From the UHGV virus genome UHGV-0250870: a stretch of DNA of 44,878 bases, one strand, 5' to 3'. Origin of the DNA: a virus. Below are positions 24,001-27,000 of the stretch, piece by piece; positions within the stretch are counted from its first letter, which is position 1, and every line of letters begins with the position of its first letter. Made by a program: the position numbers.

Positions 24001-27000
24001 GATACGGATGCGGAAGCCGCGTTTGGTCAGTTTGTGGCAGCAAACCTGCAGCCCACCGGTGCGGTCTGGCTGATGTCCAGCACAAATGCCCTGGCGCTGT
24101 CCATGCGTAAAAATGCGCTGGGTCAGAAGGAATATCCGGACATGACCCTGCTTGGCGGCACCTTCCAGGGCCTGCCGGTGATTGTCTCCCAGTACGTGGG
24201 TGACCAGCTGGTGCTGGTGAATGCGCCGGATATTTATCTGGCTGATGACGGCGGTGTGGCGGTGGATATGTCCCGTGAAGCGTCACTGGAGATGCAGTCT
24301 GAACCGACCAGCGACAGCAGCACACCGTCACCGGTGGAGCTGGTCTCCATGTTCCAGACCGGCAGCGTGGCCATCCGTGCGGAGCGCTGGATCAACTGGC
24401 GTCGTCGCCGTACCGCGGCAGTGGCGGTGATCACCGGTGTGAACTACGGAACTGCGTCCGGCGGCTGAGTCTGATGAGGAGGGCGGGAGGCGCGAGCTTC
24501 CCGCAGTAACTGATGGCAAAAATCCAGTATCTGCAGGGCACGCATGATGCCCGGGCCGGGGATATCCGTGATGTGGCACAGCCGTGTGCGGAGGTGCTGG
24601 TTCGCCTGGGGAAGGCGGAGTACATCACAGTGCGACGTCCGGCAGGTCAGAAAAAGAAACGTGATGCGGAGCATGGCGAATGTGGAACCTTTTGCGGCGA
24701 ACCCGAAAAAACCAGAAATCAGGACGTGATGTAAAAGAGGTGGGCTGGACCAGCCTGTTTCAGGCGGTGGCTGAGCCTTTTGCCGGTGCCTGGCAGCAGG
24801 GTGTGAAAGCCGATCCGGAAACCGTTTTGTCCTTTCACGCGGTGTTTTCTTGCATTTCGCTGATATCCCAGGATATCGCCAAAATGCGGCTGCGCCTGAT
24901 GCAGACCGATACACAGGGGATCCGCCGTGAAAAACGACAGGGGGATATTGCCCGTCTCTGTCGTCGTCCCAATGCACAGCAGAATCGTATCCAGTTTTTT
25001 GAACTGTGGCTGAACGCCAAACTGCGTCACGGCAATACGGTGGTGTTGAAAATCCGTAACTCCCGGGGGCAGATCAAAGAACTGCGTATTCTGGACTGGA
25101 GCCGGGTTGAACCTCTGGTGGCGGATGACGGCGAGGTGTTCTATCGCATTACACCGGACCGGAACTGCGGGATCACTGAGGCGGTGACGGTGCCTGCCAG
25201 GGAAGTGATCCACGACCGGTTTAACTGTTTTTTTCATCCGCTTGTGGGGCTGCCGCCGGTGTATGCTGCCGGGCTGGCGGCCACGCAGGGGCATCATATT
25301 CAGGAAAATTCGACGTCTTTTTTCAGAAATGGCGGCAGGCCGTCCGGGGTGATTGAGATCCCCGGCAGTATTACGGAAGAAAATGCGAAAAAACTGAAGA
25401 GCAACTGGGACAGCGGGTATACAGGCGAAAATGCGGGGAAAACGGCCATTCTGAGCAACGGGGCAAAATACAACCCCACGACGTTTTCACCGGTGGATGC
25501 GCAGACGGTGGAACAACTGAAGATGACCGCTGAAATTGTCTGTTCGGTGTTCCGTGTCCCGGCCTACAAGATTGGCGTGGGACAACCGCCTTCCAGTGAC
25601 AACGTGGAGGCGCTGGAGCAGCAGTATTATTCCCAGTGCCTGCAGACGCTGATTGAGTCCATTGAACTGTTACTGGATGAGGCGCTGGAAACGGGGGAAA
25701 ACGAGAGTACAGAATTTGATGTCACCACGCTGCTGAGAATGGACAGTGAGCGGCGCATGAAAACGCTGGGGGATGCGGTGAAAAATACGCTTCTCACGCC
25801 CAATGAGGCCCGTAAACGGGAGAACCTGCCGCCTCTGGCCGGCGGTGATGCACTGTATCTTCAGCAGCAGAACTACAGTCTGGAGGCGCTGTCCCGTCGT
25901 GATGCCCGTGAGGATCCGTTCGCGTCGACCGGGAAAACAGTTTCATCACAGCTGCCTGACGGCGCATCTGACGGTAATAAGGCCATAAGCGAAACAGAGC
26001 GTGATGCGGTGAAGGCGATGTTCAGGGGGATACTGCGAAAATGACAGAGCGTGAACTGTCCATTATCCGTGCGCTGGGTGAAGAATTCGCCACGGTGCTG
26101 GCGGATTTACAGCGCACATTTGAGGAGAAGATGGCCGCACAGTCGGGGGCGTTTGAAGAGAAACTGGCTTCCCTGTCTGCTCTGTTACAGAAGCATGTGA
26201 CGGTGGATGAGGTGCGCCCTGTTCTGCAGGCGATGATGAATGACGCCGTGGGGGCCATTCCGGTACCGCGCGATGGTCGTGATTATGATCCGGAGGTGCT
26301 GCAGCAGGCGGTGAATGATGCGGTCGCGAAAATACCGGTACCGGCGGACGGTAAAAGTGTCACTGCGGATGATGTACGCCCGATGATCGAGCAGATGGTG
26401 AAGGACGCAGTGAGTCATATCCCTGCTCCGCGCGATGGTCGTGATTATGATCCGGAGGTGCTGCTGAGGGCGGTGAATGACGCTGTCGGAAAACTTCCGG
26501 TACCGGCAGATGGAAAAAGTATCACACCGGATGATGTGCGTCCGATGCTCGAGCAGATGGTGACGGATGCCGTGAGTCATATCCCCGTTCCGCGCGACGG
26601 TCGTGACTACGATCCGGAAGTTCTGCAGAAGGCGGTTCTGGATGCGGTGAGTGCCCTGCCGGCTCCACAGGACGGGCGTGATGCTACGGCACTGGAAATA
26701 TTCCCGGCGATTGATGAGCAAAAATCCTTTCCCCGGGGCACGTATGCCACACACCAGGGCGGACTCTGGCGGGCGTATGAAAAAACGCACGGGATGCGGG
26801 GATGGGAATGCCTGGTTGACGGGGTGGCCGATATTGACGTCAGCATGACCGGCGAACGGTCGTTCACTGTGGTGGTCCGGCAGAGCAGTGGCCAGTGTAC
26901 GGAAAAAACATTTTCCCTGCCGGTGATGCTCTATCGCGGTGTATTCAGAACCGGCGAAACCTACCACCCCGGCGATACGGTGACGTGGGGGGGCTCGTTG

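Follow-up and report, generated by a model that had tools for sequence, protein, structure and literature searches.

A portal-coupled phage gene with a repeat stalk of variable length, proposed to encode a fibre of the phage neck

Fibres of the phage head and neck take several described forms. T4 fibritin (wac) consists of helical segments broken by short loops and is encoded next to neck genes, the neck passage structure (NPS) of lactococcal phages is dispensable for infection, gp12 of SPP1 is a collagen-like trimer on hexamers, and the phi29 head fibre is reportedly a trimeric supercoil of repeating helix-turn-helix units. In the NPS of TP901-1, six trimers have their N-termini at the portal/adaptor interface and end in carbohydrate-binding modules (CBMs) (PMC10747895), and the head fibre of RcGTA binds capsule polysaccharide (PMC7296036). 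Here, we analyse UHGV virus genome UHGV-0250870, a stretch of 44,878 nucleotides (nt) referred to as the window, and in it an open reading frame (ORF) of 353 amino acids (aa) at 26041..27102 on the plus strand, which we call X. We conclude that X is best placed as a widespread, uncharacterised and mis-annotated portal-linked gene of the phage fibre or whisker kind. Three points are well supported: X is a real, separate gene; its repeat forms the length-variable stalk of a fibrous, probably trimeric protein; and the function of X is linked to the portal and adaptor section of the head module.

X contains the single strong tandem repeat array of the window. Tandem Repeats Finder (TRF), run on the whole window, places this array at 26266-26636, with a period of 162 nt, 2.3 copies, 86% matches, no indels, and a score of 551, compared with 80 for the runner-up. 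The repeat is far beyond chance. A preliminary description of this DNA had reported about 2.5 near-identical units of 180 bp (60 aa) at 26260-26690; the array is indeed real and in frame with the ORF, which exists as that description gave it, but the unit is 162 bp (54 aa). A repeat search places three in-register units (26196-26357, 26358-26519, and 26520-26681), which together span 26196-26681 on the plus strand and show 100, 77, and 65% identity to the first; the number of in-frame copies in the window gene is 2.3-3. Each unit falls into two half-units of related sequence, A (PRDGRDYDPEVLqqAVNDAVakIPV, 25 aa) and B (PADGKSvTaDDVRPMiEQMVkDAVSHIPa, 29 aa), which form six helix-plus-turn modules in the order B-A-B-A-B-A over aa 53-208. 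The two full units, when compared, share 86% nucleotide and 83% amino acid identity, with 11 synonymous and 9 non-synonymous codon differences, and the repeat region is strongly acidic (pI 4.4).

The same array is found well beyond the window. Across several sources, 637 contigs encode the exact 353-aa protein. The complete genome of Escherichia coli EcPF40 has the 1062-nt gene at 100% identity, and 51 complete-genome records match it at 99% identity or more. Since the exact protein occurs both on these contigs and in complete genomes, the array is not the assembly artefact that the preliminary description had considered. Its expectation of a variable copy number among related prophages is borne out: in phage and complete-genome records, the matches extend over 900, 1062, 1224, or 1386 nt, i.e., exact 162-bp steps, and the X proteins in IMG/VR are 245, 299, 353, 407 (or 405), 461, 515, and 569 aa long, corresponding to one to seven units. 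As such, X is an in-gene variable-number tandem repeat with a 162-bp unit and alleles of 245-569 aa that differ in 54-aa steps. Even where the 600-nt flanks are identical, loci encode X proteins of 353, 407, 461, or 569 aa, and O157 alleles contain exactly duplicated units; therefore, the changes in unit number are recent. Short-read assemblies often stop within the repeats.

A 286-aa antisense ORF at 26185-27045 (minus strand) was considered as a gene and rejected as a shadow ORF. Its codons are exactly in register with those of X, and only sense TTA (23, 49) and TCA (336, 337) codons delimit it; it is interrupted 1-16 times in other genera and lengthens with repeat number across all E. coli alleles. 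Its length arises because the repeats contain no TTA, CTA, or TCA sense codons.

The AlphaFold2 model of X, computed for the monomer from a 128-sequence alignment (mean predicted local distance difference test score [pLDDT] of 80.7), begins with an amphipathic helix at aa 1-52 (26041..26196, plus strand; helix 3-50 in the model, pLDDT 90-97). This helix is kept across the family, with variable sequence, and is presumed to be the attachment and oligomerisation segment. The stalk follows as predicted helices of 13-17 aa each (55-71, 84-96, 109-125, 138-150, 163-179, and 192-205; pLDDT 50-79), spaced by 12-residue Pro/Asp/Gly linkers with PxDGxD turns. The conserved C-terminal beta domain occupies aa 209-353 (26665..27099, plus strand), carries two putative CBM5/12-like hairpins and two near-invariant cysteines, and is modelled at about residues 220-345 with a pLDDT of 95-98. 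The fibre-like character suggested earlier for this protein is thus recovered as a helix, a helix-turn stalk, and a beta domain whose structural neighbours are fibre tips and CBMs. Family members range from about 180 to 1240 aa on one shared plan, namely an N-terminal helix, variable helix-turn modules, and a conserved C-terminal domain, and the largest relatives (860-1240 aa) have 20-30 helix-turn units. Among 148 representatives, runs of at least four consecutive GXY triplets occur in 68 (46%) and runs of at least six in 41, in the stalk and directly after the C-terminal domain, which implies trimers. Among PDB sequences, no homologue of the X stalk or of its N-terminal helix was found.

Judged from the model, the C-terminal domain resembles tandem CBM5/12 chitin-binding modules and phage fibre tips. 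A Foldseek search of the PDB returned the 7-7-1 long tail fibre, the Milano baseplate receptor-binding complex, and the tandem CBM12 of Vibrio chitin deacetylase, while the matches among viral models (BFVD) were phage proteins with collagen-repeat, ChiC_BD, or CBM5/12 features. With the family profile, PDB sequences matched were the CBM12 of a chitin oligosaccharide deacetylase (3e-3) and All3316, an Anabaena injection-system protein (5e-4). Within X, a sub-threshold Pfam CBM_5_12 match covers aa 303-325 (YHPGDTVTWGGSLWHC...; 26947..27015, plus strand; 20.7-24.5 bits), and some Klebsiella and Salmonella homologues carry a precomputed PF02839 match. Across 79 loci, the median identity to the window proteins is 54% for the C-terminal domain of X, 51% for the portal core, 50% for the capsid domain, 47% for the protease, 36% for the adaptor, and 32% for head closure; the N-terminal helix shows 44% identity within Enterobacterales and is undetectable beyond. 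Given that the C-terminal domain is conserved like portal and capsid, the knob would be a conserved part of the head module and not a fast-evolving, host-specific receptor binder. This pattern suggests a structural over a host-specific role, and the idea of a host-specific receptor-binding tip is weakened by the slow evolution of the domain.

The window represents a lambdoid prophage. Its head module is of the HK97 type, and X lies there between an HK97-type portal gene (24680-26044) and a gp6-like adaptor gene (27099-27425), in keeping with the head-region assignment made in the preliminary description. The module starts with an HNH endonuclease gene, the small and large terminase subunits, the protease/capsid fusion, a 73-aa ORF, the portal, and X, and continues with the gp6-like adaptor, head closure, gp10-like, tail completion, major tail protein, chaperone, and tape measure protein genes. 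The prohead protease/major capsid fusion (22447..24468, plus strand) is identified by Peptidase_S78 and Phage_capsid, TIGR01554, and NF045541, and the portal gene (24680..26044, plus strand, 454 aa) by Pfam Phage_portal (1.1e-81) and TIGR01537 (2.2e-106). The portal core ends at about aa 400 and is followed by a low-complexity tail of about 55 aa with the terminus ...AMFRGILRK*. The adaptor, Ad1 (27099..27425, plus strand), matches Pfam Phage_connect_1 and phrog_40. The 73-aa ORF (24513-24734, plus strand) overlaps the portal start and has no Pfam match; Salmonella (63 aa) and phage PAJU2 (ORF005) each have a small ORF at this position. Immediately ahead of the large terminase start, the small terminase gene carries a 27-bp tandem repeat at its 3' end (20688-20741, plus strand; 2.0 copies, 85%, TRF score 80).

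This arrangement recurs throughout the family. A scan with the C-terminal domain profile, using one genome per species, yielded 80 loci from Enterobacterales, Pseudomonas, Burkholderiales, Rhizobiales, Sphingomonadales, and one Clostridia metagenome-assembled genome. An HK97-type portal lies directly upstream of X in 75 of the 80; four of the remaining five have almost no upstream sequence, which leaves a single exception (L186). The protease-capsid gene is found upstream of the portal in 68 loci, and a gp6-like adaptor match is present in 72, mostly directly downstream of X. The family thus has a fixed gene arrangement in Proteobacteria of protease-capsid fusion, portal, X, and gp6-like adaptor.

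The genes on both sides of X are also joined to it at the nucleotide level. The portal stop codon is overlapped by the ATG of X (ATGA), and the X stop codon is overlapped by the GTG start of Ad1. The sequence AGGGGG at 26024..26029 (plus strand), 11 nt before the X ATG, is the likely Shine-Dalgarno (SD) sequence of X and contains a tract of five G residues (G5, 26025-26029). A purine-rich SD-like run precedes X in 57/57 junctions examined in other genera. Translational coupling of X to the portal gene is the best explanation that we can offer for this layout. We rejected both a programmed -1 frameshift at CGA AAA UGA and an SD-stimulated shift, as the slippery context is not conserved: the codons before the portal stop in other Enterobacterales are ACC, GCC, or ACA followed by AAA, which allows no A AAA re-pairing, the frame offset differs in Salmonella, and 82 nt separate the two genes in Erwinia. 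A phase-variable G tract is doubtful: both states occur in two flank haplotypes (L098 and L064), but the state is mostly lineage-structured, and G5 and G6 are short for slippage.

In the alignment with O157:H7 strain 8368, the junction differs only by one extra G, and the resulting G6 joins portal and X in one ORF encoding an 859-aa protein. A pattern scan of IMG/VR gave 98 E. coli loci, to which reference loci were added (~100 in total); of these, 58 are G5 (two genes) and 42 are G6 (fusion), and the range of one to seven units occurs in both states alike. At the species level, fusion is seen at 1 of the 80 loci (L131, Pantoea), and only two of the best 150 cluster representatives are portal fusions, namely that of E. 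coli and P0372 (1237 aa). Other Enterobacterales share the ATGA junction, and their portal ends in ...AM(L/F)RG(L/I)LxK* (RGxLxK*), as it does in the G5 frame of the window. Stand-alone homologues in Salmonella, E. albertii, Erwinia, Pseudomonas phage PAJU2, and others share the start Met of X, although its spacing from the portal varies from an 82-nt gap in Erwinia to an 8-nt overlap in Salmonella. Because fusions are rare while the portal C-terminus, ATGA, and start Met are conserved, the two-gene G5 form of the window is ancestral and the O157 G6 fusion derived.

For the same region of EcPF40 (24680-27102), RefSeq/PGAP gives one "phage portal protein, frameshifted" pseudogene, a label that follows from the single 859-aa protein that O157:H7 makes of both ORFs. 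Neither the adjoining portal gene nor this RefSeq treatment of the pair was noticed in the preliminary description. From the comparison of junctions, this NCBI label has the polarity backwards, and many stand-alone X proteins are misnamed "phage portal protein".

The E. coli G6 loci mostly share one downstream haplotype (37/41), and we suspect that O157 genomes are over-represented among them. The fusion is present in the inducible Shiga toxin (Stx) phage 2851 and in vB_EcoS-705R7. X is intact at similar rates in fused and unfused alleles, and its internal SD and ATG are kept in G6 alleles. Free X may thus also be made from this internal start, in which case the two genes would be nested in the manner of lambda C/Nu3. 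The independent Pantoea fusion, represented by L131 (Ca. Pantoea communis; 1722-5468) and P0372, is about 1240 aa long, and its portal part is separated from the conserved C-terminal domain by about 30 PEPEPLPDI-helix repeats.

The preliminary description did not recognise the family of this protein, which is in fact identifiable: X residues 1-353 align with positions 1-331 of the 331 in the PHROG 1289 profile (phrog_1289; E = 1e-177), and nine distant homologues of X match the same profile at 1e-81 to 1e-118. An exhaustive HMMER search gives a family of 5585 clusters (50% identity) at E <= 1e-3 and 617 at E <= 1e-30. The "portal protein" label of PHROG 1289 is inherited from the fused alleles (phrog_2271, 859 positions). 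X itself has no match to the portal domain models PF04860 and TIGR01537 and is thus no member of the portal family, and in the fused O157 protein the alignment to solved portals (396-431 aa) is confined to residues 41-420. There is no NCBIfam model for X, and no Pfam match to the Phage_Mu_F domain of SPP1 gp7 and Mu F-like minor head proteins even at E <= 10. A fusion of X to the downstream adaptor, as the Klebsiella annotation "phage gp6-like head-tail connector protein, partial" would have it, was rejected: these records (L104-L106) are incomplete X proteins whose N-terminal side is cut off by a contig end within the repeats, with a separate 108-aa adaptor gene downstream.

We propose that X encodes an elongated trimeric fibre whose N-terminal coiled-coil-type helix would serve as the attachment end. 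Its stalk would consist of short amphipathic helices alternating with degenerate collagen-like PxDG(K/R)(D/S) turns, and its C-terminal globular domain of CBM5/12-like hairpins would act as trimerisation nucleus, binding knob, or both. The 54-aa unit, i.e., two helix-turn modules, would function as a spacer, with unequal recombination between the 162-bp repeats adding or removing units (one to seven in E. coli) and thereby shifting fibre length while leaving both ends untouched. Insertion of one G in the AGGGGG run gives the derived O157-type allele, with X on the flexible C-terminal tail of the portal. Given the coupling of X to the low-abundance portal and its constant place between portal and gp6-like adaptor genes, we infer a low-copy fibre at the portal vertex or neck. 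Taken as a whole, this reading, a portal-coupled fibre gene with its product at the portal vertex or neck, seems to us about equally likely to be right or wrong. Within it, we also infer that X is trimeric, present in the virion, placed at the neck, provided with a ligand, and surface-exposed, the last as the preliminary description had suggested.

Several observations weigh against this proposal. The portal C-terminus forms the crown, which published portal structures place inside the capsid, and therefore a fused X should be internal; such fusion to the portal C-terminus is found at about 40% of the sampled E. coli loci, occurs in inducible Stx phages (2851), and arose independently in a Pantoea lineage (L131, P0372). 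For the fused alleles to agree with a neck fibre outside the capsid, either free X must also be made from the internal start or X must be dispensable. The window X has no run of four or more GXY triplets and shows only single remnants (PRDGRD, PADGKS), so that it does not itself qualify as collagen-like, and the AlphaFold2 model is of a monomer only, with a low-confidence stalk and a predicted template modelling score of 0.44. The CBM_5_12 (PF02839) scores of 20.7 bits for the whole ORF, 24.5 for the domain alone, and 19.1 for the O157 protein stay below the cut-off of 26.2, and the conservation of the C-terminal domain at the level of portal and capsid across E. coli, Rhizobium, and Burkholderia hosts is unlike that of a host-specific receptor-binding tip. 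The PAJU2 homologue, ORF007, is outside the proteins annotated as structural, and our literature search found no paper and no experimental work on any family member; the FSL SP-016 paper is without virion proteomics. The fusions, for their part, are weak evidence, because a 1-nt indel near ATGA suffices to create them, they are rare at the species level, and the internal SD and ATG persist.

The main rival to the neck fibre makes X an internal head protein on the portal crown, covalently attached in G6 alleles, that extends flexibly into the DNA-filled capsid and uses its repeats as a neutral spacer, in a position likened to that of the P22 portal barrel, SPP1 gp7, or the T7 core. The two independent fusions to the portal C-terminus (E. 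coli G6, 42 of ~100 loci, and Pantoea L131/P0372) speak for such a location, as do the similar intactness of X in fused and unfused alleles, the universal coupling to and adjacency with the portal, and a C-terminal domain that evolves at the rate of portal and capsid, as expected for the partner of a conserved virion component. However, we know of no internal capsid protein with collagen-like triplets, a segmented fibre, and a CBM-like knob, and the structural neighbours of X are all external fibres or carbohydrate-binding modules. Fusion at 1/80 species-level loci, trivially made by a 1-nt indel at ATGA, indicates tolerance more than function; moreover, the E. coli G6 loci largely trace to one downstream haplotype (37/41), and free X may still arise from the SD and ATG that they keep. 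On balance, we regard the internal placement as possible, though unlikely. A bolder form of it would make X a new internal head component, a collagen-like coiled-coil fibre on the portal crown whose CBM-like knob contacts DNA or the inner wall and for which G5/G6 is a switch between free and portal-locked states; we consider this version more doubtful still.

Decoration and non-virion assembly roles are less likely. In the former, X would be distributed across the shell as a capsid decoration or head fibre, modelled on T5 pb10, T4 Hoc, phi29 gp8.5, and SPP1 gp12, with the C-terminal domain anchored to the capsid and the variable stalk projecting outwards. This would agree with the C-terminal domain being the conserved end, in step with capsid divergence, while the N-terminal helix and stalk vary, and with the fact that no other decoration gene is visible in the head module. 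The start/stop coupling to the portal and the position on the adaptor side and not the capsid side nevertheless argue for a low copy number, and an X fused to the portal would be unable to reach the outer capsid surface. We therefore rate this option as improbable.

X might alternatively act as a portal chaperone or scaffold helper that is lost after prohead formation, a role close to the scaffold-like one raised in the preliminary description. Helical, acidic, and elongated proteins encoded beside portals are often scaffolds, the PAJU2 homologue is not annotated as structural, and in RcGTA a helical gene product is encoded directly after the portal gene (PMC7296036). Yet that RcGTA gene is dispensable for head shape (PMC7296036), the capsid gene of the window already has its own protease and linker region, and a collagen-like fibre ending in a CBM-like knob does not look like a scaffold. 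The scaffold suggestion thus finds no support, and we think an assembly factor highly improbable. Finally, that the ORF is the 3' remnant of a frameshifted portal pseudogene, as the PGAP label for EcPF40 states, or that its repeat is an artefact of the kind that breaks short-read assemblies and starts Klebsiella fragments at contig ends, is hardly credible and, by sequence comparison, refuted by the conserved portal C-terminus that the G5 frame restores, the ATGA junctions of other genera, the 58 G5 loci of ~100, the 82-nt intergenic gap before X in Erwinia, and the exact protein on 637 contigs and in complete genomes.

The family of X is large and portal-linked and belongs to HK97-type temperate phages of many Proteobacteria, including long-tailed Stx1- and Stx2-converting phages of enterohaemorrhagic E. 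coli, and it is systematically mislabelled as "portal protein", "frameshifted portal", or "gp6-like connector". The G5/G6 tract accounts for thousands of inconsistent annotations, and the 162-bp repeats, which break short-read assemblies, might be used for typing prophages. If X is a fibre of the neck or head, it would represent an unrecognised adhesion or stability element in medically relevant phages; if it is internal, it would represent a new type of head structure.

Elsewhere in the window, three tRNA genes at 13736-13985 (plus strand) follow a DNA methyltransferase gene and have a CAT anticodon (Met according to ARAGORN, Ile according to RefSeq), Arg-TCG, and Arg-TCT; such a cluster is typical of the late regions of Stx-phage-like lambdoid phages. 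Compared at this cluster, gene coordinates upstream of about 17 kb are offset by about 1.4 kb from those of EcPF40. A DUF1737 ORF (14961-15449) overlaps a SASA carbohydrate-esterase ORF (15397-16815; both plus strand), where EcPF40 has a single 1962-nt coding sequence for a "SASA family carbohydrate esterase", and the window copy may be frameshifted or rearranged. In the early region, two minus-strand ORFs of 251 and 499 aa at 1810-4061, the larger of which matches a Mu-transposase C-terminal domain, look like an insertion sequence inside the prophage. Near the prophage end, a cargo gene at 43831-44283 (plus strand) strongly matches the VapA/VapB family of virulence-associated proteins of Rhodococcus equi (PF05526, 5e-34); its neighbours include an Ail/Lom gene at 39800-40399 and, as observed in EcPF40, a truncated ompW.

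Returning to the described systems, the head fibres of RcGTA (Rcc01080) and phi29 (gp8.5) share with the proposed X a flexible fibre and a short N-terminal attachment segment, but they occupy penton or quasi-3-fold sites of the capsid through dedicated base proteins and have no link to the portal gene; no homology to X was seen, and none was tested for. The P22 portal barrel and the T4 gp20-GFP cargo resemble the G6 and Pantoea forms of X in being C-terminal extensions of a portal subunit; the barrel, however, is a continuous 12-helix tube, whereas X would be a knobbed, repeat-variable fibre encoded ancestrally by a separate gene. The CBM5/12 modules (the binding domains of ChiB, ChiC, and ChiA1 and the CBM12 pair of the Vibrio deacetylase) are matched by X below the Pfam gathering score, and the X domain differs from them by its length of ~140 aa, a further beta sheet that separates its two hairpins, and its pair of conserved cysteines, with sugar binding being putative. 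T4 fibritin shares more of the overall plan, namely a segmented coiled coil whose segment number varies among relatives, a small conserved C-terminal domain, and a gene near the neck genes; its foldon is ~30 aa and not CBM5/12-like, and it has no collagen-like element, homology, or portal-gene link in common with X. The NPS (collar-whisker) of TP901-1 and Tuc2009 has no detected sequence similarity to X, its gene lies in the tail/baseplate region and not after the portal, and its N-terminal domain is a 125-aa globular ring former, whereas X has a single helix and owes its proposed place in the virion to gene order. With the proposed X, it shares an elongated trimer, an N-terminal anchor at the portal/adaptor, distal CBMs, and a low copy number (PMC10747895). 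By analogy, therefore, the lactococcal NPS is probably the closest functional analogue of X, with T4 fibritin also close.

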